From Phycisphaerae bacterium (GTDB lineage Bacteria > Planctomycetota > Phycisphaerae > UBA1845), in the NCBI GenBank assembly GCA_013360585.1, contig JABWBH010000004.1, forward strand, positions 49,422-113,421: a DNA stretch of 64,000 nucleotides, read 5' to 3'. The position numbers and the translations under genes are program-made. Below are positions 2,404 to 54,581 of the stretch, piece by piece. The notes beneath the pieces were generated by a model. It searched no databases, was not told the DNA's origin, and worked only from the letters and a program-made list of their open reading frames with translations. Each line of letters opens with the position of its first letter. The first letter of the stretch is position 1.

Positions 2404-4257
2404 ATGCGTAACCGGGTTCCTCATCGCATCGTCCCCGTCATTGCGCTCGTCGGCATTGTCGTGGGTTGCAGCTCGCTTTTTGATCATCTTGCGTCGCAAT
2501 CCGGGCGCGACAGCGGCGCGTTCAGCTCGATCAGCAGCGACTTCTCGAACGACAACGTCTCGATCGTCCCACCCCCGCCGGACGACTCCGCGCCCGTGGA
2601 CGGCGCGGGAGAGGAAACGCTCAGTTTCTTCACCGCCTATCAGATCGATCCCACGGCGGAGGACACGGCCGGTCCGAAATTCGTCGTCTCCGGCGATCTG
2701 GATCAGGACGGGTTGCCCGACCTGGTCAGCGCCTGGAACCAGTCCCAGCCGGTGCAGATTCACCTCCAGCGCCGGGACGATGACGGCAACATTTCGTTCC
2801 GCACCGTGACGCTCGCCGGTACGACACCGGTCGCCGTCGTCGCCGGGGTACAGGTGGGCAACATCAACGGCGACGCCTTTCCGGACGTCGTCGTGCTGGT
2901 CAAAGCGACCGGGGCTGGGACGCTGTGTCCGGCCAACTCGGTCGGCGGTCCGCCGACTTCGCTGGGTCTGCTCGAAGGGGAGATCATCATCTACATCAAC
3001 CCCGGCAGCGACAGCCTGGTGCCCAACGGCGACCGCTGGGCGGAGATCCTCCTCTCGAATCCGATGGTCATCGCCTATCAGGTCGATGACGCCGGCAACA
3101 TCGTCCCGTCCCGCTGGATTCACAATCAGTTTCCCGGGCGTGAGACCGCCGAAATCGACGACGCGAAGACGAAGCCCGAGTTGTCCGGCTTCACCTCGCT
3201 CGCCCTGGCCGATCTCGACGGCAACGACGGTGACGAGATCATCGTCGCCAACAACGCCGCCGAGTGTGAAGCCCTCCTGCACAAGCCGCCGCTGTCGATG
3301 CTCGACGTCTGGATCAACCCCGGCGGCGTCGCAGCTGAGGATCCGGCGAACTGGGGCGTCCCCGTGCTCACGCCGGCGAACGAGCTGGCCGGCGCGCCCA
3401 TCACGATCGAATTCGACCTGCCTGATCTGAACACAATTCACGTCAGCGACGTGGACGACGACGGCGACCTCGACGTCATCGCCACGTTCACGAACTCGCT
3501 CAGCCGCAACATCCGCTGGTGCCGCAACCCCTTCGTTGCGCATCAGGAGGGCGGACCGGGCGGTTTCGCCGAAGTCGTCGCGGGCAACGTGGATCCGCCG
3601 CTGTATCAGGCCAGCGGCTGGGAGCAGCGCCCCGTCGGGCAACTCGACACCGGCGCCGATATGATGGCGATCGGCGACGTCGACGGCGACGGGTTTGACG
3701 ACGTGGTCGTGCGTTCAACGCTCGGACAGATTGTGCAGTGGTTCCGCCGTCCGACGTTCGAGGCCGTCGAGCCGGAATTCCCCCCGCCGGACCCGACACC
3801 CGACCGCACCAACTTTCCCTGGCAGGTGTACACGTTGACCGAATTCGAGCTGCGCGAGCCGGAAGCGCTCAGCGTGGGCGACGTCGACGGCGACGGACGC
3901 AATGAAGTCATCGTGGCCGCGGAGGGCGCGGTCGTCTGGTTCGACGAGTCGCCCACCCTGACGGCTTACGACCCGTGGCTGGAGAACAAGATTATTCAGG
4001 ACGGCGCGACGGAGACCACCACACCCGGCGCAGGCGCCACGTCCGGCAACACCAACGACAACAGCTCCACCCCTCCGGCGGGCTCCGGCGTCGGCGTGTC
4101 CGACGTGGACGTCTCGACGCACATTAACTTCCTGCTGATCGTGGACCTCGACGGTGACGGGTTCAATGACATCGTCGGAACGCTGGACCGACGCACCGGA
4201 CCGGGATTGTCCGATGACCGGCTCGTCTGGTATCGCAACAATCTCGGAGACGAGTGA
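2404..4257 (+). CDS. FG-GAP / integrin-alpha-like beta-propeller lipoprotein
   Basis: Seven DxDxDG-type Ca-binding FG-GAP motifs: GDLDQDGLPD, GNINGDAFPD, ADLDGNDGDE, SDVDDDGDLD, GDVDGDGFDD, GDVDGDGRNE, VDLDGDGFND. ATG at 2404 follows GGGAGG. The signal/lipobox is VIALVGIVVGCSS. The ORF-track start at 2113 is probably too far upstream. Confidence 0.85.
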   Translation: MRNRVPHRIVPVIALVGIVVGCSSLFDHLASQSGRDSGAFSSISSDFSNDNVSIVPPPPDDSAPVDGAGEETLSFFTAYQIDPTAEDTAGPKFVVSGDLDQDGLPDLVSAWNQSQPVQIHLQRRDDDGNISFRTVTLAGTTPVAVVAGVQVGNINGDAFPDVVVLVKATGAGTLCPANSVGGPPTSLGLLEGEIIIYINPGSDSLVPNGDRWAEILLSNPMVIAYQVDDAGNIVPSRWIHNQFPGRETAEIDDAKTKPELSGFTSLALADLDGNDGDEIIVANNAAECEALLHKPPLSMLDVWINPGGVAAEDPANWGVPVLTPANELAGAPITIEFDLPDLNTIHVSDVDDDGDLDVIATFTNSLSRNIRWCRNPFVAHQEGGPGGFAEVVAGNVDPPLYQASGWEQRPVGQLDTGADMMAIGDVDGDGFDDVVVRSTLGQIVQWFRRPTFEAVEPEFPPPDPTPDRTNFPWQVYTLTEFELREPEALSVGDVDGDGRNEVIVAAEGAVVWFDESPTLTAYDPWLENKIIQDGATETTTPGAGATSGNTNDNSSTPPAGSGVGVSDVDVSTHINFLLIVDLDGDGFNDIVGTLDRRTGPGLSDDRLVWYRNNLGDE

Positions 4258-4277
4258 CGCGGCGAAGTCGACCGGGG

Positions 4278-5147
4278 TCAGATTTCGGAGGGACCGTAAT
4301 ACGCCTCGACGGCAAGCCCCGTCTCCGCGCGAACGCGGGCGGCGACATAGTCCACCTCCGCGGCCGACAGCGGCGTCACCGACGGCTCCGCGGGCTTGCG
4401 GGCGACGGTGTACACCTGCACGCGCGCCAGCCGCCCGCCGGCGTACGTCACGCCGTTCAGCGCTGCGATGTACGCGGTGAGCTCCTTGTCGTCCGGTCCG
4501 ACGCCGTCCACGCGCATGAACAAGGACTGGATCACCACCGGACGCCGGCGCGCGCACGCGAGGATCTCGTCTAACACATGCCGCAACGGGACGTTCGGAC
4601 GGTTGATCCGGCGGTAATATTCCTCCGTCCCCGCGTCCAGCTTCGCCCAGATCTCGCTGCGCTCCCGATCGAGCAGCGCCAGCCCCTCCTCCACCTTCGG
4701 TCGCGTCAGGTACGCCGCGTCCGTAATCACCACGATCTTCACGTCATCCAGTCTCAGCGACCGCTTGACGCCCGCCGTCAACGCGACGCATTCCGCGAAC
4801 GTCTTGCAGGCCGTCGGCTCACCGTCTCCGGAAAACGCGATGTCCCGCAGTCGAACGAGGTGCTCCGGCAGCCCCGCAAACTCCGGCTCCCGCGCCAGCC
4901 GACCGTCGATCACGCGCCTCAGCATCTCGCGCAGCTCGACCTCGAGCACGCCGGCGTCCACCTCGCGCACCACCGGCGGCGTCGTGCGGTCCACCTGGCA
5001 GTAGATGCAGTCGAAGTTACACGCCTTGTCGGGATTCAGGTTGATCCCGATGCTGATGCCCCCGCTGCGGCGGGAAACGACCGGGTAGACGTAGCGGTTT
5101 GCGCGCCAGTCCCGCGGGTGATGCATGAATTGCGGCAAGGTCGTCAT
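4278..5147 (-). CDS. Radical SAM protein (COG0731-like, function unknown)
   Basis: CNFDCIYC is the CxxxCxxC radical-SAM cluster motif. It is preceded by VVSRRSGGISIGINLNPDKAC, which is typical of this subfamily. Confidence 0.85.
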   Translation of the reverse strand: MTTLPQFMHHPRDWRANRYVYPVVSRRSGGISIGINLNPDKACNFDCIYCQVDRTTPPVVREVDAGVLEVELREMLRRVIDGRLAREPEFAGLPEHLVRLRDIAFSGDGEPTACKTFAECVALTAGVKRSLRLDDVKIVVITDAAYLTRPKVEEGLALLDRERSEIWAKLDAGTEEYYRRINRPNVPLRHVLDEILACARRRPVVIQSLFMRVDGVGPDDKELTAYIAALNGVTYAGGRLARVQVYTVARKPAEPSVTPLSAAEVDYVAARVRAETGLAVEAYYGPSEI

Positions 5148-45466: not shown

Positions 45467-47572
45467 TCAATCATCAAAGATGTCCGACGCGTCGCGGACC
45501 GCTTTCTCGCGCGTCTCCTCGTTGAGTTCCTTCTGAAGACGGATGATATCCTGAAGCATCGTCACCGCGTCGTGATACCCTTCCGTGCGCTTCATCCGCG
45601 TCAGGACTTCCGCCATCTCCTTCAAGACCAGCGCCTGCGCCGGATCGACGGCGACCTCGGAGGCGTCGGTCCCGTCGGCGCTCCAGTTCCGCACCAGCTC
45701 CGCCGCTCCCGGAAGCCGCGCCTCGGCGAGCTGCTTGAGCGGGAGCGAAACCTCGGTCTCAATCCGCTCGGCGATGCCCAGATCGTTCAGCGCATTGATC
45801 CGGATCTCCGCGACGATCCGCTCCACCTGCCGCGCGACCGCCGCTACGCCCGCGGCAAGGCTCCGCTGGCGACGCTCCAGCGGCGCGAGGCGCTCCGCGC
45901 GCTGCGCCGGCGTCGATTGCGGCGTCAGCCGATCCGCCGCGGTCAGCAACTGCCGCCGCAGTTCTTCCTGCTGATCGACGAGCCGCTGGAATTCCGAGCG
46001 GGCCTCCTGCTCACGCCGGGCGAGGTCGGCCTGAAGCTCCTCGGGCGTCACGACGCGCAGCGTCACCGGAAGCGAACGCGCTTCGCCCGGTCCCGTCACA
46101 TCATTTAAGTCCGCCGCGTGCGCCGCCAGTGAGATCATGTCCCCCGGCGCCGCACCCGCGGACGCCGGCGACCACTCCACCGTCACCTCGTACACCTTGG
46201 ACCGCGGCGCCAGCGGAGACAAAACCGGAGCAGCCGGAACATCCGGAGAGTCCGCCAGGTCCGCCTCCAGCCGCACCGCACCCAGCCCGAAATCGTCCGT
46301 CGCCTCGACGCGCATCGGGAGCACCGCCTGCGGCGTAACACGCTCGCCGACGCCGGGAAGCAGCAGCCGGACCGTCGGCGCCTCGTCCACGATCAACCGC
46401 ACCACGAAACGTTCATGTCGCCGGCTTGAGAGTCCTTCCGGATCGGTGAGCTGCACGTGATACGTCGCCCCAGTCGAGACGTCGATCCGCGCCCGCCAGC
46501 GCTCCTCCGCGCCTTCGAGAGTTCCCAGCGGTTGATGATCCGCGAACCACGCCGCCGAGGCGACGGGCTTGCTGGTCGTCAGATCGATATCGATCCGGCT
46601 TCCCGCCAGCGCCCGGATCGTTCGCTGGTTCGCCGGAAGCGTCGCTTCCTCCAGCCCCGCGTACGCCGGCGGCGCCACCCGGATCGACGCGGAACTGACG
46701 CGAGGCCTTTCCGAGAGCACGACCTCGATTTCGCGCGTTCGGTCGTCGCCGCCTTGAAGGCGAAACCGCAGCGGCTGCTCCAGATTCACGAAGGTGTGCC
46801 GCACCTCCGCGTCTCCGACACGCGTCATCGTTTGACGCCCGTGCTGTCCGCCCGCCGTCTCAAACAGAACCTCGACGTCGCGCGGTACGACTCCCTCCAC
46901 GCGGGCTCGCACCTCCAGATCATCCCCTGTCGCCGCGACGATCCGGTCTCCCTCCACGTCGAGCACCAAGTGCGTCTGCTTCGGCCACTCCCGGGCCGAC
47001 AGCAGAAACGAACGACGCAGCGCCAGCCCCAGCGACGCCGGGCAGACCTGATACCAGATGCCCAGGCACATTCCCGACAGCGCCAGAATGCCCGCCGCAA
47101 CGGCGGCCCGACGGTGGCGAAGCAGCGCCGAAACATCGATCGAGGACAAGGCTGCGTTCGCCTCGGCGATCACCCTTCGGGCGAGTTCTCGAGAATTCGT
47201 TTCTTCATCACCGATCTGCCCGCGCGAGAAACGCACGGACGACACCAGCAGCGTTCGAAGTCGAGGGTCCGCCCGCTCCACCAGATGCGCGGCGTCGGAG
47301 GTGTCGAGCGGCTGACGAAGCGCAGGCCGAAGCCGTCGAAGGACGAGGTAAGTTAACGTCGCCAACAACGGCGCCAGCAGCGCCCCGCGCGCCGCCCGCC
47401 CCAGCCGCAGGTAATAATCCGCCGCCACCAGCAACGCGAACCCGACGCCCCACGCCGCGACGATCGCCGCTGACGCCTCCGCCACGACGTACCACCGCCA
47501 CCGGCGCAGCAGCGCGCGGAGGCGATGTTCGATCGCCGGCGAGAGACGGATCGGTTCAGGATTTGACGACAT
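45467..47572 (-). CDS. Large membrane-anchored hypothetical protein (DUF4175-like?)
   Basis: N-terminal pair of TM helices (VVAEASAAIVAAWGVGFALLVAADYYL and LLAPLLATLTYLVL), followed by a long soluble region with a coiled coil near the C-terminus. The family name is from memory and is of low certainty. Confidence 0.6.
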   Translation of the reverse strand: MSSNPEPIRLSPAIEHRLRALLRRWRWYVVAEASAAIVAAWGVGFALLVAADYYLRLGRAARGALLAPLLATLTYLVLRRLRPALRQPLDTSDAAHLVERADPRLRTLLVSSVRFSRGQIGDEETNSRELARRVIAEANAALSSIDVSALLRHRRAAVAAGILALSGMCLGIWYQVCPASLGLALRRSFLLSAREWPKQTHLVLDVEGDRIVAATGDDLEVRARVEGVVPRDVEVLFETAGGQHGRQTMTRVGDAEVRHTFVNLEQPLRFRLQGGDDRTREIEVVLSERPRVSSASIRVAPPAYAGLEEATLPANQRTIRALAGSRIDIDLTTSKPVASAAWFADHQPLGTLEGAEERWRARIDVSTGATYHVQLTDPEGLSSRRHERFVVRLIVDEAPTVRLLLPGVGERVTPQAVLPMRVEATDDFGLGAVRLEADLADSPDVPAAPVLSPLAPRSKVYEVTVEWSPASAGAAPGDMISLAAHAADLNDVTGPGEARSLPVTLRVVTPEELQADLARREQEARSEFQRLVDQQEELRRQLLTAADRLTPQSTPAQRAERLAPLERRQRSLAAGVAAVARQVERIVAEIRINALNDLGIAERIETEVSLPLKQLAEARLPGAAELVRNWSADGTDASEVAVDPAQALVLKEMAEVLTRMKRTEGYHDAVTMLQDIIRLQKELNEETREKAVRDASDIFDD

Positions 47573-47587
47573 CCAACAACGCTCCGG

Positions 47588-48400
47588 TCACGACGCCGGC
47601 AGCAGCATTCCCGGCCAGAACACCTCGACTCCCGCGATGATCGCCGGCGGAAGGAAGACCGCCGGAAGCATGTCCGCCACCGGGATTTTCTTCACATCCA
47701 GGATCATCAGCGCCGTCCCCAGCATCAGCACGCCCCCCACCGCCGCCATCATCGACCGTGACACTTCCGGCAGCGGATCCGCCGCCAGATACGCCAGCAC
47801 GGACAACCCGCCCTGAAACCCGATCACCGTCACGACGCTGAGCATGACGCCCCACCCCAGCGTCGACGCCAGCGCCATCGAGCAGAATCCGTCCAGCGCG
47901 GACTTGATGTAGAGATAACCGGGGTCGCCCTGCGACCCATTCCGCAGGCATCCGAGCAGCGTCAGCGGTCCCACGCAGAAAATGACGCTCGCCGTCAGGA
48001 ACCCTTCCGCGAACCGGTGTCCCCCGTCCCCGCCGCTCCCCCCGTTCCCGCCCCCCCCGAACCGCACATGCACCCACGTTCCGAACCCCTCGATCCGCTG
48101 GTGCAGCCCCAGCAGCGTCCCGAGAATGCAACCGGGGATCAGCGACCCGATCATCACCATCGCCAGCCGCGCGCCGTACGTATCCGGATAACGCACCTGC
48201 CCCTTGAACCGCGCCACCGTGTCTCCGAAGACGATCACCGCCGCATCAATCCCCAGCGTGATGGTCATCAGCCCCAGCGCGCTGAGCACAATCTGCTGAT
48301 AACGCTGCGGCATCCGTCCGGACAGCAGCAGCCCGACCGCGCTTCCCAGCGCCACCGTGAGGGCGTTCACCACCGTCCCGTTGATATGCTCCCACCCCAC
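47588..48400 (-). CDS. DUF554 (YqgA/YdfK-like) membrane protein
   Basis: INGTVVNALTVALGSAVGLLLSGRMPQRYQQIVLSALGLMTITLGI ... CVGPLTLLGCLRNG ... KSALDGFCSMALAST is the DUF554 pattern. GTG start follows GGAGG. It ends 16 nt upstream of the next gene. Confidence 0.8.
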   Translation of the reverse strand: MGWEHINGTVVNALTVALGSAVGLLLSGRMPQRYQQIVLSALGLMTITLGIDAAVIVFGDTVARFKGQVRYPDTYGARLAMVMIGSLIPGCILGTLLGLHQRIEGFGTWVHVRFGGGGNGGSGGDGGHRFAEGFLTASVIFCVGPLTLLGCLRNGSQGDPGYLYIKSALDGFCSMALASTLGWGVMLSVVTVIGFQGGLSVLAYLAADPLPEVSRSMMAAVGGVLMLGTALMILDVKKIPVADMLPAVFLPPAIIAGVEVFWPGMLLPAS

Positions 48401-48746
48401 CGACCCGCCCTCCGCCGCAACCCCGCCGCGCCCCCCTCAATCCGTGCATCCCCATCCCGCGATCCGAGAATAACTCGTCAGGTTCCGCAATCCCAGCGCG
48501 GCATCTTCATTTCGAGCTTTGAATGCGGGATTGGTCGCCTCGGCGATTCCGGCTGGGCATCAGGGGCCATCGGGTTCAACGACTCGCATTCCCTGGACCG
48601 CCAAGGAGTGAACATCGCGTCCTGCGCCGGTCGGCGAACTCGTGAGGGATCATCGTGCGTACGAGCAACCTCTTTACACCGCAACCCACGATGAACGAAA
48701 GCAATAAACAAGCAGACAGAATCGCTGACTCGACCCCTCAACGTCG

Positions 48747-48803
48747 AAACACCTGCTCATCCGAGACATGAGCGGTCAAGTTAAAGCAGAGGTGTTTTTT
48801 TTT
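48747..48803 (+). terminator. Orphan terminator-like structure with a T9 tract
   Basis: AAACACCT (48747-54) pairs with AGGTGTTT (48790-97). This encloses an inner hairpin, GCTCAT/ATGAGC. Nine T residues follow at 48795-48803. No annotated plus-strand gene lies upstream. Confidence 0.55.
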
Positions 48804-48829
48804 GACATCCGCGTTCTTTTTGGTATGTT
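48802..48829 (+). promoter_or_regulatory. Near-consensus sigma70-type promoter of the Cys-rich cassette
   Basis: TTGACA (48802-07), a 16-nt spacer, then TATGTT (48824-29), in an AT-rich patch about 75 nt upstream of ATG 48903. Confidence 0.55.
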
Positions 48830-48902
48830 TTGTTTATGGGTCGTCGCCTAACCACCACCCCATCCGTGCTGATTTCATGGGAACACCGACCGGAGTTGTA
48901 GC

Positions 48903-49370
48903 ATGACACGAAGAATGGTTTTGACCGTCAGCGTTCTGTTGATGATGTTCTGTTTGGGAGAACACCTTTTCTCCGCCGTCCCGGCGCGCGGGATCGGAGC
49001 TTGTGGTTGCTACAACCCCACGAACGAGTGCAAGGTGACGCCGACGACTTGCGTCTGCCCGTCACCCGGAGGAACGTGTCCGGAGGATCGGCGCGAGAAA
49101 ATCAACGATGTGGTTCGGTTTGTGGATGGAAACCACAGTCAGGCGAACGACTGCTACGAGCATATCAACGAGGAAATCATCTGTTACAAGGACTGGGATT
49201 GTGTGGATGGAGGAAACCTCAACTGCACGGTTCCAAGCCCAACCAACCCCAGCGGAAGCTGCCGGCTTACCGGCGGCAGCCTGCTCCACACGGAGACAAT
49301 CTCTGATTACTGGATGAGACGCGGCGATTGCAACGCCTCTCCCTGCGAGGGAACCTCCTGCGGCGACTGA
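48903..49370 (+). CDS. Small secreted cysteine-rich protein (155 aa, 14 Cys in the mature part); no family recognised
   Basis: GGAG lies 7 nt before the ATG. Signal peptide: MTRRMVLTVSVLLMMFCLGEHLFSAVPA. Cys patterns: CGC...C...CVC...C...C...C..C...C...C...C....C....C. The C-terminus is RRGDCNASPCEGTSCGD. GC is clearly lower than in neighbouring genes. Confidence 0.7.
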   Translation: MTRRMVLTVSVLLMMFCLGEHLFSAVPARGIGACGCYNPTNECKVTPTTCVCPSPGGTCPEDRREKINDVVRFVDGNHSQANDCYEHINEEIICYKDWDCVDGGNLNCTVPSPTNPSGSCRLTGGSLLHTETISDYWMRRGDCNASPCEGTSCGD

Positions 49371-49449
49371 AGCGGAATCCGTCAAGGGGTTGACGCCGGA
49401 GGCTGCTGACCCGTCACCCGTTTGCCATTCCTGGATCGAGGGCGAAATC

Positions 49450-50931
49450 ATGTTCATGATCGTGATCTTGGTGGTTGCCTGCGGCTTTGTCGTTCAAGAT
49501 GCGCCGCTGCCCGAAGAACTTCTGGCGGCCCAGCGGTTCCGGGAAGACCTTTTTCTGACGGCGCACATCCGGTGGGTGCGGGAAACGCCGCAGGGTCGTC
49601 GATACTACTCGTCCACTTATGCTCCTGGAGATTTTCTTCTGAAGGATCACGGGGACGAGACGGGTCTCGTCGATCCGCAGATGGTTCGACCCAACATGGC
49701 GCACGCATATTCGGAGCGGCGCCTGCTCATGACGGAGGGGCGGGACCAGTGGGATTACCGCGACCAGGGTCTGCTGGGATTGTACTTTGAACCGGGGTGC
49801 CCCGTGATTCAGGAGCAGCCGGACCTCCGCACCCTCGGCTGGATTCCCAGTCCGATGCTGTATGACCGCCCCGATTTCCTCCAATCCGACACGTTTCTAC
49901 AGTCCGCGTTGGCCGGTACCGCGTGGGAGTTTCAGGTGGATTACCCCGCCGAGGGTTTGTGCGAAGTCCGGGCCAAGTCCTCGTCGCAGATTTACCTGTG
50001 GAAGCTGGACGCGACTCAGGGATATGCGCCGATATCGGTTCAGACCACGGCGACCTTTCCTGATGGGTCTACGCGCACGTATGAATCACGGTTTCAATAC
50101 GCGGAGTACGACGGCCGCCGATTTCCCTCTCAGATCGAGATGATCGACGGGCCAAGGGGAGTCCGCGAAGTCGTCAAGATCCTGCACGCCGAGTTCGACA
50201 AGCCGTGGCATGCTTTGGATCTCATTCCCGGCGAAGCCCTGGATATGCCCGCCAGAGTCAACATCGGTTACCAGTACGCAGGCGGCACACCGGCCGACGC
50301 CAAGCTCGGTCCGCACCTTTTCGATGGTCACAGTCGTCCGCTCAATGACGCCGAGCTTAAGGAACTTGCGGATAAGGGGCAGTATCCTCCAGATGCCGTT
50401 AAGCCATTGATCGCCCTTCATAAGAAGAGGCCGCTTCCCGGTTCCACGCCCGTGGATGCGGTCGCGTTTCTTGACGCCCCCGGGGAGCCGGTCAGGCGCG
50501 CGCTCGGGCGCTGGGAGGAATACGTCCGGCGCTACATCATCATCCACAAGATGAATGACGCCCAGGCGCGAGCCGCGTGGAAGAAACTCTCCGAATGTCA
50601 GGAGCAGGCCCGCGCGCACCTTGAGGACCACAAGGCGGAGATCGCGGAGAACGACCGGATGATCGACGCAGCGAAGAAAGATGCCGCAGCGAAATCGTCC
50701 TCTCCGGCGGAATCCAAACCCCAGGAGTCCACCCTTTCCGAAGACGTCGGACTTGCTGAACTTCAGGCCCGGCGCGCCAAGCTCGTGGACGAACCCTTGG
50801 ACAAGATATTTGACAAGTGTCTGCGGGCGTCGCTTTGGGAACTGCTGACTTCTGCGCAGCAGCGTTCCTGGAATGATACGTTGAAATCGAAGAAAGTCGA
50901 TCGTCCGCAGACGCCCGTCAACACGCCTTGA
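49450..50931 (+). CDS. Hypothetical lipoprotein or anchored periplasmic protein; N-terminal LolA/RseB-like region (inferred) and a helical C-terminus with LTxxQ-like motifs
   Basis: GAGGG precedes ATG 49450. The N-terminus is MFMIVILVVACGFV, with a possible lipobox VVAC. The C-terminal helical part contains KMNDAQARAAW and LLTSAQQRSW, which resemble Spy/CpxP LTxxQ motifs. GC is lower than in the flanks. Confidence 0.7.
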   Translation: MFMIVILVVACGFVVQDAPLPEELLAAQRFREDLFLTAHIRWVRETPQGRRYYSSTYAPGDFLLKDHGDETGLVDPQMVRPNMAHAYSERRLLMTEGRDQWDYRDQGLLGLYFEPGCPVIQEQPDLRTLGWIPSPMLYDRPDFLQSDTFLQSALAGTAWEFQVDYPAEGLCEVRAKSSSQIYLWKLDATQGYAPISVQTTATFPDGSTRTYESRFQYAEYDGRRFPSQIEMIDGPRGVREVVKILHAEFDKPWHALDLIPGEALDMPARVNIGYQYAGGTPADAKLGPHLFDGHSRPLNDAELKELADKGQYPPDAVKPLIALHKKRPLPGSTPVDAVAFLDAPGEPVRRALGRWEEYVRRYIIIHKMNDAQARAAWKKLSECQEQARAHLEDHKAEIAENDRMIDAAKKDAAAKSSSPAESKPQESTLSEDVGLAELQARRAKLVDEPLDKIFDKCLRASLWELLTSAQQRSWNDTLKSKKVDRPQTPVNTP

Positions 50932-50938
50932 GCGTTTT

Positions 50939-50974
50939 CCCGGAGCCGCTTTCGTGCCGCAAAGCGGCTCCGGG
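50939..50974 (+). terminator. 14-bp perfect hairpin directly after the cassette (no U tract)
   Basis: CCCGGAGCCGCTTT-cgtgccgc-AAAGCGGCTCCGGG, starting 8 nt after the stop codon. Confidence 0.5.
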
Positions 50975-51334
50975 AGGGGGCTTCAATGAGACCGAGAAGA
51001 TCCCAACGACTTCCCATCGGCGACAAAACGATCCGCAGACCGTTGTGGATCAATGACCAACGCCGATGCCCGACGCCATCGGAAACTCCCGCGGAAGTCA
51101 AGCGTGGTCCGGGGCATAACAGCCCGCGAAGAACCCGGGATCGGTCTTTGTGATGCCGGTTTTTCCCGATGAAATTCGCCTCCCGGGAGGGAGGCGCACC
51201 CCTTTGTCAACGGGCTGATCGGCGTTAACTCCTCCTCTTGTCCAATCCTCTCCCCGGCTGCGGTTTGATGGGATAGACTCTCCCCTGACCCGATCCATAA
51301 CGGGAGTGATCTGGCCGCGGGTGCAAGTGCGCCT

Positions 51335-51420
51335 CGGGCGAGTGGCGGAACGGCAGACGCCGGGGACTTAAAATCCCCTGTCCCGTCAAGGGACGTGCGG
51401 GTTCAAATCCCGCCTCGCCC
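51335..51420 (+). tRNA. tRNA-Leu (anticodon UAA), type II with a long variable arm
   Basis: Manual fold. Acceptor: GGGCGAG/CTCGCCC. D stem: GCG/CGC. Anticodon stem: GGGGA/TCCCC, with loop CTTAAAA. Variable arm: GTCCC/GGGAC. T arm: GCGGG-TTCAAAT-CCCGC. Discriminator: A. CCA is not encoded. Confidence 0.9.
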
Positions 51421-51542
51421 ATCCTGACGGGCACGGATGTCTCCTTCGATTCCCAGGGGTCAGGCTGCGGGGCGTCGCCAACGTACCCGCCGATCGGTGC
51501 GGAATGCGACACCGGTCGGGCGCCCCGCGGCGACGATCCGCG

Positions 51543-53873
51543 TCACGGCGAGGGTGAGGTGGAAGCGGATTCGAGCGCCGCCGCCCGGGCCTCGCAGGCG
51601 CGCATGTCCTCGGGCCGCTCGAGAACCCGGTAGCATTCCGCCAGCACGCGCCAGTGCGACGGCTGATTCGGCTCCAGCTCCGCCGCCTTCCGCAGCGGCG
51701 CTTCCGCCTCGCCCGCCCGGTCCGCGATCAGGAGCGCCTGACCGAGAAGGCGATGCACCACGGCGCGTTGCGGCAGCAGCGCCGCGGCGCGCTGAAGGTG
51801 CGGGATCGCGCCGTCCGTGCGTCCCAGGGCGAGGAACACCTCCCCCAGCAGGTGATGCCCGTCGCCGAAATCCGGGTCGAGCGTCACCGCGCGCTGGGCC
51901 TGCGCGACCGCTTCGAGCGGTTCATTCCGCGTCAAGGCGAGGACCGCGAGCGCATGCAGCATCTCGGGCGACTCGCCGTGAAGTTCGATCGCCCGGTGAA
52001 GCGCCGCCTCGGCCGGGTCGGGTCGGCCCGCGGCGGCGAGCAGCCGGGCGACGGTCATAAGGGTTTCGCGCGTCGGGTCGAGGTCCGCCGCGGCCTTGAG
52101 CTGCGTCACGGCGCGATCCGGTTTCCCCACGGAGAGCAGGAACCGCGCGTACTCCCGGCGAAGCGCGGCGCTTTCCGGGCTGACCCGCACGGCGCGCTCC
52201 AGATGCGCCTCCGCGTCCGCCCGATCCTGAAGAAGGATCGCGAACCACGCCTGCCTCGCCAGGTCTGCCGCCGACGCCGTCAACCCCCAGCGAATCAGCG
52301 CCGCACCTCGCGTTCGCCCTTCTTCGACGGCGCTGCGCTGCTCGGCGCTGAGACGCGACGCCCCGGAAAGCGACTGCTCCATCGTGACGCCGTAGTCGAA
52401 CGACGCGCGGTAGGCGCGATCCGCACCGGCGTCGAGCCGCTGCATCACCCCGCTGTGCGCCCAGAGCAGGGCGATCGGCGCCATCGCCGCCAGAAAGACC
52501 GTCCCGGCGCGCGTCAGCCGCCCGCCCCGGCGCAGCGAGAACTGCTGGAGACGCACATTCGTCCGCGTGAACATGCGCGTCGTCTGCAGCGCCAGGTAAG
52601 CAAGGATCGCCGCCACGCCCAGCGCCATCAGAAAGGGAACCACGTCATAAAGCCCGCGGAACGCCGCGAACGCCGCGAGAAAATACCCCCCCAGCAGCAG
52701 CTCCTCGAGGAGGTTGTAATCCCCTCGCATCGACGCCGACAGTACGCCCATCACGCACGCCAGCCCGACCCAGACCGGTTCGGGCATCGCGCCGAACGCT
52801 TCCGAAAACAACACCCGCGCCGCCGCGTAACCCGCCGCCGCGTAAACCCCCGCGTGAACCGCGAACCTTGCCCGCCGCGCCGACCGATCCCGCCGCGCCT
52901 CCGGCGAAGCCTTCCGCTTCGCGCGCGGTTGGGCGAACGAAGCCGGCGCGCCGAATCCGAAATACAAGGCGTCGTTCGGACACACGCTGACGCAGTCCAT
53001 GCATTTCATGCACCCGGGATCCACGACCATCCCGAAGTCGCGCACCTCCTCGTGAACCCGCACGTTCGATGTACACGCGGCTGTGCAATGCCCGCACCCC
53101 TCGCAGGCGTCGGTGACGCGGATGCGACCCGGCGCGAGCCGATCCGCCACGCCGAAGATCCCCCCGTAAGGGCATCCGTAAGTGCAGAACCCCTTCGACC
53201 CGAGCAGGTACACGATCACGAACCCGCAGGTCAGAAACGTCAGCCCGCCGATCACCCACCCGGGAAACGTCGCCCAGAACTGCGTCGTCGTCAGGTGCAT
53301 CTCGGCGTGCGCTACGGAACGCCCGGCCGAGGCGCGCTGCACGATCGGAAACACGAACATGTAGAAGAACGCGATCAGCGGAACCCAGATCAGCAGGCGC
53401 GACCGCATCGCCCGGGGACGGAGGCCCGCCTTCCCCAGCAACCAGCGACACAGATCCTGCAAGGCGATGACGTGACACCCCCAGCCGCAGAAGAACCGCC
53501 CGAGCACCAGCGTCGAGAGGATCGCCAGGGCGAAAAAGATCGCTCCCGCGTTGACGATCCCGCTCTTCGAGAACTCCATCGCTTCCGAAGGCTCCAGCGG
53601 CGAGAGCGTCCGCCCGGTCGCATACCAGTGCGCGATGTGCACGGCGATCAGGAGATGCACCGCGATCAGCACGAGCGCCCGGCGACGCGACATCCGCGAC
53701 GGCTTGACCCTGCCGCCGGAGGGCAGCACCGGCAGCGCGACCTTCGTACCGCCGCCGCGATCGGGCAGCGCGGATCCGGGATCGCCCCCGCAGCGGGCGA
53801 CCGCGGTCTCGCCGTCGCCCGGCGCCTTCGATCCGTTGCGGCGGGAAACGCGAGTCGTGCTAGAGTAGTGCAT
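51543..53873 (-). CDS. NapH/FixG-like membrane polyferredoxin fused to a C-terminal TPR array
   Basis: FFCGWGCH and FCTYGCPYG motifs sit within TM segments. There are two ferredoxin-type clusters, CEGCGHCTAAC and CMKCMDCVSVCPNDA. After further TM segments come at least 7 TPR-like repeats, for example AEAHLERAVRVSPESAALRREYARFLLSVGKPDRAVTQLKAAADLDP. The start is uncertain (ATG 53873 or ATG 53693). Confidence 0.8.
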   Translation of the reverse strand: MHYSSTTRVSRRNGSKAPGDGETAVARCGGDPGSALPDRGGGTKVALPVLPSGGRVKPSRMSRRRALVLIAVHLLIAVHIAHWYATGRTLSPLEPSEAMEFSKSGIVNAGAIFFALAILSTLVLGRFFCGWGCHVIALQDLCRWLLGKAGLRPRAMRSRLLIWVPLIAFFYMFVFPIVQRASAGRSVAHAEMHLTTTQFWATFPGWVIGGLTFLTCGFVIVYLLGSKGFCTYGCPYGGIFGVADRLAPGRIRVTDACEGCGHCTAACTSNVRVHEEVRDFGMVVDPGCMKCMDCVSVCPNDALYFGFGAPASFAQPRAKRKASPEARRDRSARRARFAVHAGVYAAAGYAAARVLFSEAFGAMPEPVWVGLACVMGVLSASMRGDYNLLEELLLGGYFLAAFAAFRGLYDVVPFLMALGVAAILAYLALQTTRMFTRTNVRLQQFSLRRGGRLTRAGTVFLAAMAPIALLWAHSGVMQRLDAGADRAYRASFDYGVTMEQSLSGASRLSAEQRSAVEEGRTRGAALIRWGLTASAADLARQAWFAILLQDRADAEAHLERAVRVSPESAALRREYARFLLSVGKPDRAVTQLKAAADLDPTRETLMTVARLLAAAGRPDPAEAALHRAIELHGESPEMLHALAVLALTRNEPLEAVAQAQRAVTLDPDFGDGHHLLGEVFLALGRTDGAIPHLQRAAALLPQRAVVHRLLGQALLIADRAGEAEAPLRKAAELEPNQPSHWRVLAECYRVLERPEDMRACEARAAALESASTSPSP

Positions 53874-53987
53874 GCCCGATGACCCGACGGACCTTCAATC
53901 CAACGAACTTCGCCGCGACAACGCCACCGACCGAACGTTGAAGGAGGCATCCTATCTGACGCGACGCGGGCGCCTCAAGATGCGATC

Positions 53988-54581
53988 ATGAAAGCCCAAC
54001 CCTTCGCCCCGAAAACCTGCCATCGTTGCGACTACGACCTTTCCGGTCTGCCGGAGGACCACCGCTGTCCCAAGTGCGGCCTGCGCTACGACGCCGACAC
54101 CCGCTCGTGGCGCCCGAGCGAACCGTGGATTCAACCCGCCGCTCTGTTGATGCTCGCCATGTACATCGGACTGCCGGTTCTCGTCTGGCGCAAACCAGCG
54201 CTTGAGCTTGTCGTGCGCGCCCTGGCGGAGACGGTGCTCTGTTTTCTGGTGGTACGTGCGTGGCGTCATGAGCGCAAGGGCATCCTCATCGCCGTCCACC
54301 CGGAAGGCGTCTTCATTCGCGACCACGACCGCGAGGAGTGCTTCGACTGGGCGTCGATCGAATCTCTCGAAGTCGACGAGCGCGCGGGCCAGTTTTCTCG
54401 CCGGCATCAACTGCATCTGCGCCTGACGAGCGGGCGGCGGATTCCGCTCACGACGTTTTTTCTCTGGTCGGCGGACAAGAAGGCGTTTGCAGCAGTTTTC
54501 GGACTCACCCGCCGGCGCCACGCGGATGCGTCGAGCGCGAACGCCGTCGTGCGGGAAACGCCGCCGTCCCCGACGCCGTGA
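53988..54581 (+). CDS. Membrane protein with an N-terminal CxxC...CxxC zinc ribbon
   Basis: CHRCDYDLSGLPEDHRCPKCG is followed by two hydrophobic segments and a soluble C-terminal domain. Confidence 0.55.
   Translation: MKAQPFAPKTCHRCDYDLSGLPEDHRCPKCGLRYDADTRSWRPSEPWIQPAALLMLAMYIGLPVLVWRKPALELVVRALAETVLCFLVVRAWRHERKGILIAVHPEGVFIRDHDREECFDWASIESLEVDERAGQFSRRHQLHLRLTSGRRIPLTTFFLWSADKKAFAAVFGLTRRRHADASSANAVVRETPPSPTP

Follow-up and report, generated by a model that had tools for sequence, protein, structure and literature searches.

The lipase-specific foldases (Lif/LipH/LipB) are N-terminally anchored private helpers in the periplasm, each encoded beside a secreted lipase and carrying a helical embracing domain. 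RseB and MucB, the partners of the anti-sigma factors RseA and MucA, are two-domain periplasmic proteins of the LolA type, and Spy, CpxP and ZraP have a helical periplasmic domain with two L-T/D-x-x-Q motifs. The canonical LolA is marked by a conserved Arg on its beta2-beta3 loop and LolB by an exposed Leu on its beta3-beta4 loop, a further mark being the pairing with LolCDE or LolB; to LolA3 of Porphyromonas gingivalis no function has been assigned, and LolB is not its partner (PMC13103446). Here we analyse a cassette of two genes, g1 and g2 (48691-51420), in a stretch of 64,000 nucleotides (nt) from a Phycisphaerae bacterium, contig JABWBH010000004.1, the whole of which is called the window below. 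In an earlier sequence-only reading the cassette was taken for a Cys-rich secreted protein and an unclassified lipoprotein that had been acquired beside a tRNA-Leu gene. We find it to be more general than that reading had supposed, one copy of a two-gene envelope module that is widespread in Planctomycetota and had not been described. As its structure is predicted, g2 belongs to the LolA superfamily and combines a new architecture with a new partner; no paper describing the g2 family or the two-gene module was found. The two genes are as follows.

48903-49370, forward strand: g1, 155 amino acids (aa), Sec signal peptide, 15 Cys, 14 of them in the mature part of about 127 aa.
49450-50931, forward strand: g2, 493 aa, exported or N-terminally anchored.

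When 1.84 billion representatives, with clusters at 50% identity, were searched exhaustively with a profile, g2 gave 884 clusters at an expectation value (E) <= 1e-3, of which 566 passed E <= 1e-10 and 62 passed E <= 1e-30; the relatives are almost all full-length (440-520 aa among the 150 best-scoring of the 884). A word-indexed protein search had returned four g2 relatives only, both proteins looking near-orphan, and the same kind of search with a 53-sequence profile again failed to reveal the family; the reading of an orphan island at a tRNA is an artefact of word-based homology search. Large as it is, the family has no model in Pfam or NCBIfam, and the source names that were looked up are all 'hypothetical protein'. 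The window g2 has no match at E <= 1 to Pfam, and the PHROG, PADLOC and NCBIfam scans yielded no usable match either; the Pfam model LolA_like (PF17131) matches 2 of 53 relatives weakly (best E = 0.0077), and its gathering threshold is not reached by the window g2. It had been stated earlier that neither protein can be placed in a family. For g1 there is no match in the Pfam, NCBIfam, PHROG or PADLOC scans; for g2, with its 884 clusters and its predicted LolA fold, the statement no longer holds. At NCBI the exact g1 and g2 stand next to each other, each annotated as 'hypothetical protein', in metagenome-assembled genomes of Phycisphaerae and Planctomycetota. The narrow-alignment search gave three named genomes with members (Planctomycetota BroJett003, Phycisphaerales SJ659 and a Planctomycetales bin).

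The upstream DNA of g2-family genes was inspected in 12 independent lineages with enough sequence. Directly upstream and on the same strand, 10 of the 12 have an open reading frame (ORF) of 100-175 aa with a signal peptide and 9-13% Cys, as listed here by lineage and locus.

Window clade: window 48903-49370, 15 Cys in total, 14 mature.
P0004: L006/7, frameshifted.
P0007: L008-10 (L010:1905-2363), 14 Cys.
P0008: L011, frameshifted.
P0030: L014/15 (L015:381-776), 15 Cys.
Phycisphaerales SJ659: L017:2325-2729, 13 Cys.
Planctomycetales bin: L018:1512-1868, 13 Cys.
P0064: L023:2474-3001, 22 Cys.
P0141: L025, 14 Cys.
P0026: L026:5498-5950, 17 Cys.

The contexts of these pairs are unrelated, with flanks that differ in each lineage (DUF554 and tRNA, a HisKA kinase, a peptidase M1, multihaem cytochromes, a PARP-domain protein, GCV_T/DAC), and in L023 the two genes adjoin with no spacer (2474-3001, then 3001-4482). 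The idea of a dedicated partner, put forward from the window only, thus gains strong support from the co-occurrence, and the pair is a portable module that recurs across Planctomycetota, not a one-off island at a tRNA. Two neighbours have each been seen in a single case: one g2 relative adjoins a phage small-terminase gene (Terminase_4, L022:1971-2426), and another lies just 3' of the gene for a 540-aa PARP-domain (ADP-ribosyltransferase) protein (L023:635-2257).

With a 143-sequence alignment, AlphaFold2 gives for g2 a model with a predicted local distance difference test score (pLDDT) of 90.3 and a predicted template modelling score (pTM) of 0.86, the pLDDT of a 4-sequence run being 45. The model has a beta-rich domain at about 35-290, a linker and long helices at 347-484. 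Foldseek against the PDB returns 23 matches at E <= 1e-3 for it; the top 23 are all LolA-type with probability 1.0, the targets being LolA3, NE2245, DUF1329, RseB/MucB, LolA and LolB. On this model, the N-terminal domain of g2 is predicted to be a LolA-superfamily beta-cradle. The cradle of about 250 N-terminal residues is common to g2, LolA3 of P. gingivalis (9tp6), NE2245 (3buu) and the DUF1329 protein 4z48 (E 2e-7 to 3e-5, probability 1.0, target template modelling (TM) score about 0.5), and in a PDB profile search the block PVR..DG.WFP..AEFNRP of g2 aligns to LolA3 with E = 0.0018; in the form PVR..DG.W(F/M)..(A/P)EFNRP the block is common to g2 and the LolA outliers. By contrast with these outliers, g2 is twice as long and has an extra helical domain of about 140 residues with LTxxQ motifs, and none of those proteins is described with a Cys-rich upstream partner such as that of g2. 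In the window there are no lol genes next to g2.

The extra domain carries two motifs of the form L-[TD]-x-x-Q, and the earlier remark that LTxxQ-like motifs are present at the C-terminus is borne out, as about 80-90% of 143 relatives keep the two. In the first, L368 is kept in 132/143 and Q372 in 126/143 relatives; in the second (L466-T467/Q470), T467 is kept in 115/142 and Q470 in 125/141. A single conserved Cys383 also lies in this domain (124/143 relatives). The motifs are like those of the helical domain of Spy, CpxP and ZraP, and when g2 profiles were searched against the PDB, no chain of Spy, CpxP or ZraP came up at E <= 10. RseB/MucB, which like g2 are LolA-type and two-domain periplasmic proteins, match by Foldseek at E of about 1e-5, but overall they superpose poorly (query TM of about 0.2, root-mean-square deviation 13-16 A) and the second domain is different; in the loci with gene tables no sigma or anti-sigma gene, the mark of an RseB/MucB system, stands beside g2, and in the window its neighbours are a DUF554 gene, the gene of a 701-aa protein, tRNA-Leu and the gene of a Fer4/TPR protein. 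The protein thus unites elements of envelope quality control, a fold predicted to be of the LolA/RseB type and motifs of the Spy/CpxP type, and is tied to a hypervariable Cys-rich partner.

A hydrophobic export or anchor segment is present at the N-terminus of g2 in 118 of 143 relatives. The label of lipoprotein, given earlier to g2, is dropped because the lipobox Cys is not conserved: the window g2 has the lipobox VVAC, the same position is Tyr in the 89%-identical ortholog P0003, the alignment column (C11) varies, and even a relaxed lipobox is found in just 17 of 143 relatives. It is noted also that the window g2 deviates at near-invariant positions of the family (W224R, G269R, G265D, P188A, P460A, W291F) and that its score with the family hidden Markov model, 364 bits, is below that of most members (up to 504); it therefore belongs to a divergent subclade.

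For g1, the ORF and the Cys count agree with what was claimed earlier, namely a 155-aa signal-peptide protein with 14 mature Cys. All 14 are kept in the orthologs of close relatives, and the Cys content of the upstream-slot proteins is to be set beside that of the window genes, with a mean of 1.4% and a maximum of 5.2%. Significant sequence similarity of the window g1 is found only to the L008/L010 partner (2.6e-9), and the slot proteins of L006 and L011 are similar to each other (3e-11); significant similarity is thus confined to subclades, the slot proteins were not joined across them, and jackhmmer fails past the window/P0007 subclade. The traits common to the slot proteins are CxC..G..C near the start, a core C-[YW]-x-x-[YW]-[DK]-C, an aromatic-Gly-Cys tail (e.g. 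SDYW..G.C) and mature Cys counts that are mostly even, with cleavage sites that are inferred. The small slot ORFs are often overlooked by gene callers (e.g. in L008 and L026). A phospholipase A2-like identity of g1, considered in view of 14 Cys in about 125 aa, was ruled out, the conserved His/Asp being absent.

The cassette is an autonomous operon, in which a single promoter precedes the two genes and a single terminator hairpin follows them. Its signals are the following.

48795-48803, forward strand: T9 tract, which abuts and overlaps the -35 hexamer and is UP-element-like; not supported as a terminator.
48802-48829, forward strand: sigma70-like promoter TTGACA-16-TATGTT, a 10/12 match with a TG motif before the -10.
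48892-48895, forward strand: ribosome binding site GGAG of g1, 7 nt before the ATG, in columns conserved in relatives.
49438-49442, forward strand: ribosome binding site GAGGG of g2, 7 nt before ATG 49450, with GAGGGC invariant in a four-way alignment.
50938-50975, forward strand: terminator-type stem-loop, 7 nt past the g2 stop, with no U-tract.

The promoter, called before the best of the window, is the sole match of at least 10/12 when both strands of the 64 kb are scanned; L001, L004 and L005 conserve both the T-run and the -35 hexamer TTGACA, the latter without any change in these three relatives. The T9 run had been read as part of a terminator-like structure. The run itself is real, but the fold of 48740-48806 is no better than that of shuffles (z = -1.06), and since the run overlaps the -35 and has no co-directional gene before it, the upstream DUF554 gene being on the opposite strand so that there is nothing to terminate, it is better read as a promoter-upstream T-tract. 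The genes are 79 nt apart on the same strand, and because of the conserved Shine-Dalgarno site the start of g2 is put at ATG 49450, not at TTG 49390. The arms of the terminal hairpin, 50938-50952 and 50961-50975, are perfect over 15 base pairs (bp), one more than had been reported (-38.8 kcal/mol, z = -5.8), and the hairpin is partly kept in L001, L004 and L016, where two of the changes are G-U-compatible and one is a mismatch. In an Rfam scan of 48300-51600 the tRNA alone was matched, with no regulatory RNA in the 500-bp spacer upstream of the cassette, which is poorly conserved. Upstream of a distant copy of the module, a tandem direct repeat, TATATTGTGATTTGAC x2, is seen at L006:9166-9246 and is followed by a C10-T6 homopolymer junction; this AT-rich spacer with its TATATTGTGATTTGAC repeat may be an operator or promoter region. 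As the envelope of Planctomycetota is unusual and poorly understood, so compact, conserved and strongly promoted an operon is a tractable entry point to it.

The close relatives compared, L001-L005, are from public assemblies, and in all of them DUF554 is followed by the cassette, tRNA-Leu and the Fer4/TPR gene, as in the window. Their flanks are 93-97% identical to the window; in the comparison of cassette and flanks, nucleotide identity is 85-93% versus 95-97%, and synonymous divergence (dS) is 0.25-0.31 versus 0.10-0.15, rising to 0.87 for g1 against L005. The nonsynonymous (dN) and synonymous divergences are as follows.

g1: dN/dS 0.17-0.28, dS 0.26-1.16, dN 0.075-0.200.
g2: dN/dS 0.20-0.26, dS 0.25-0.33, dN 0.063-0.066.
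Flanks (DUF554, 701-aa and 776-aa genes): dN/dS 0.04-0.23, dS 0.10-0.17, dN 0.006-0.028.

By these alignments both g1 and g2 are real genes under purifying selection, in a cassette that evolves faster than its flanks. Four lineages have an inactivated g1, and in three of them g2 is intact: in L001-3 g1 has a 2-bp deletion, found in three samples, in L006/7 a frameshift, identical in two samples, and in L011 a different frameshift. Programmed frameshifting in g1 was considered and rejected, as there is no slippery site and as the lesions, which also include a TAA, differ from each other in kind and position; being heterogeneous, they are mutations and not programmed recoding. The TAA is in L005 (9458-11479), where both genes have premature stops, in the signal peptide of g1 and at g2 codon 399 (GAG->TAG), and where both still appear selected, with dN/dS about 0.2. 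The g1 allele of L005 has dS 0.87, versus 0.25 for the adjacent g2, a contrast that suggests allele exchange at g1.

We propose that g2 is dedicated to the Cys-rich g1 with which it is co-expressed, and holds or escorts it in the periplasm, a reading that we favour tentatively, giving it a little less than an even chance. In this proposal, g1 would be exported by Sec and would then fold into a small disulfide-rich protein, the sequence of which would be free to vary except for the cysteine framework. The co-expressed g2 would be exported too, or else stay fixed at the inner membrane through the hydrophobic segment of its N-terminus. In the periplasm it would bind g1 as its dedicated partner, with the LolA-type beta-cradle and the Spy/CpxP-like helical arm holding or escorting g1 during its folding or its outward movement. 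The operon logic would be the same as that of the lipase-specific foldases, that is, a gene for a Sec-exported client and then a gene for an anchored helper. The likeness would be one of arrangement, as there is no relation in sequence or fold between Lif and g2, the client of Lif is an enzyme and g1 is a small Cys-rich protein, and g2, in contrast to the logic of Lif, sometimes persists without g1.

Several points weigh against this proposal. The g2 gene is intact beside an inactivated g1 in L001-3, L006/7 and L011, and since a private chaperone is expected to be lost with its client, this retention counts against the holder role; in addition, L012/13 and L024 carry g2 with no Cys-rich neighbour. 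The slot proteins of different subclades are unlinkable by sequence and may not be one family. In hhalign the C-domain of g2 against Spy plus CpxP, whose reference sequences were verified against the PDB, gives a probability of 1.5% with only 17 columns aligned, at the motif, so that homology to Spy or CpxP is not detectable. The physical binding of g1 and g2, and with it the role of holder or escort, is what we infer, the structure models covering g2 alone, and the same holds for the location of both proteins, since the basic n-region is absent from most of the signal peptides.

The main alternative is that the two genes are an effector and its protector, with g1 a secreted antagonist or toxin and g2 shielding the envelope of the producer by binding g1 or by masking its target; a strain could then lose the effector and still keep its protector. 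We consider it rather unlikely, although it explains the survival of g2 after the loss of g1 (kept in three lineages, alone in two more) better than the holder model does; the repeated inactivation of g1 with g2 kept predicts that g2 has a value without g1, and it is this that separates the chaperone from the protector model. The alternative also agrees with the faster change of both genes than of the flanks (dN 0.06-0.17 versus 0.006-0.028; dS 0.25-0.87 in the cassette versus 0.10-0.15 in the flanks), with the suggested allele exchange at g1 of L005 and with the occurrence of the module in variable contexts with atypical composition. But neither a delivery or uptake domain nor an export system past Sec was found, and a folded protein of about 13 kDa would seem to have no obvious path into the periplasm of a neighbour. 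Moreover, g2 is large (493 aa) with motifs conserved over 884 clusters, unlike small co-varying immunity proteins, neither PADLOC nor PHROG gives a match, and g1 has no conserved residues of catalytic type.

The second alternative loosens the coupling between the genes: g2 would serve the envelope in general as a carrier or holdase, with lipids, lipoproteins or unfolded proteins as its cargo, and the slot before it would hold assorted Cys-rich envelope or surface proteins that share its promoter. This is consistent with g2 being kept without g1, with the slot proteins not being demonstrably homologous between subclades and with the habits of the fold, as LolA-fold proteins usually bind acyl chains and LolA3 has a non-Lol role with no function assigned (PMC13103446). 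We regard it as unlikely, since one rare class of protein, with a signal peptide and 9-13% Cys, fills the slot in 10 of the 12 lineages, and since the spacing is tight, down to zero in L023.

A broader idea takes the module for a Planctomycetota-wide system of envelope conflict or variation, in which hypervariable, disulfide-rich exported effectors or surface ligands are repeatedly switched off by frameshift or nonsense mutation and g2 is their cognate neutraliser or delivery factor, kept after their loss. If this idea, which we hold to be speculative and quite unlikely, is true, the system would be bacteriocin-like, or one of surface variation, built on a lipoprotein-carrier fold.

That the cassette is a recently acquired genomic islet inserted at tRNA-Leu, as the sequence-only reading had it, is now very unlikely. 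The composition drop on which that reading drew is confirmed by windowed guanine plus cytosine (GC) content and codon usage: GC is 0.54-0.63 in 500-bp windows across 48501-51500 and about 0.66 elsewhere in the window, and the first 60 nt of g1 have 43.3%, in agreement with the earlier hand count. The segment 48691-51420 (2730 bp) has 0.591 against a window mean of 0.660 with a standard deviation (sd) of 0.017 at that segment size, that is, about 4 sd under the mean of equal-size segments, and the minimum of the 64-kb window, 0.588, starts at 48451. The deficit is mostly at third codon positions, where GC is 0.70 in g1 and 0.71 in g2 versus a mean of 0.80 (sd 0.047) over 40 window ORFs, g2 being joint lowest among them, and Leu codon usage is shifted in the cassette (CTG 31% vs 49%, CTT 29% vs 14%). 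The idea of a bldA-like control, with TTA codons beside tRNA-Leu(UAA), was dropped, as the cassette has zero TTA and TTG is only mildly enriched. At the other loci of the module, GC is under that of the flanks in 9 of 10 and over it in the single low-GC host; as the offset recurs with the module in other hosts, it is a trait of the family and not proof of recent import here. The neighbouring tRNA is as follows.

51336-51421, forward strand: tRNA-Leu(UAA), a neighbour that is not demonstrably part of the module.

Besides composition, the islet could appeal to the intergenic DNA on both sides of the cassette, which is poorly conserved and full of indels, to the dS above that of the flanks and to the different contexts of family members elsewhere. 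But the tRNA has the cassette on its 5' side and not at its 3' end, no integrase or other mobility gene is present among the window ORFs, no att-like tRNA repeat was found in 47000-54000, and no phage, plasmid or viral homologs of the module were found; other g2-family loci have no nearby tRNA. All close relatives that were sampled, BroJett003 included, carry the module at this site, which counts against a recent acquisition there; the DUF554 homologs from metagenomes (55-63% identity), which are more distant, share no synteny with the window. The tRNA adjacency looks incidental, then, and a recent tRNA-targeted insertion is not supported. The differing contexts and the raised dS do make an older or repeated horizontal spread of the module plausible.

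The least probable of all, to which we give a very slight chance, is that the pair handles metals, with g1 a periplasmic metallothionein-like thiol-rich binder and g2 a helper of the ZraP type (Metal_resist/LTxxQ), for although CxC, CxxC and CC motifs are plentiful in the slot proteins, the LTxxQ-like motifs of g2 are conserved and one of 53 g2 relatives matches Metal_resist weakly (E = 0.0094), the mostly even mature Cys counts (on putative cleavage sites) are as for disulfides, the aromatic/Gly/Cys framework suggests a folded disulfide core, there are no His/Met-rich motifs and no metal-efflux or regulator genes nearby, and no profile links g2 to ZraP, Spy or CpxP.

Finally, we note some features of the surrounding DNA. 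Between the hairpin and tRNA-Leu, a stretch of about 109 bp (51112-51220) is replaced by 7 bp in L001-L004; in the window it holds a GC-rich palindrome, cgcctcccgggagggaggcg, and no second copy of the stretch is present there. The assemblies L001-L004 end about 100 bp beyond tRNA-Leu (window about 51526), and L006/L007 end 130 bp beyond g2, common breaks that hint at strain-variable or repeated DNA just downstream of the module. On the flanks, 45467-47572 encodes the 701-aa protein, which has no Pfam domain, and 51543-53873 encodes a 776-aa membrane protein with 4Fe-4S ferredoxin motifs and a C-terminal TPR array.

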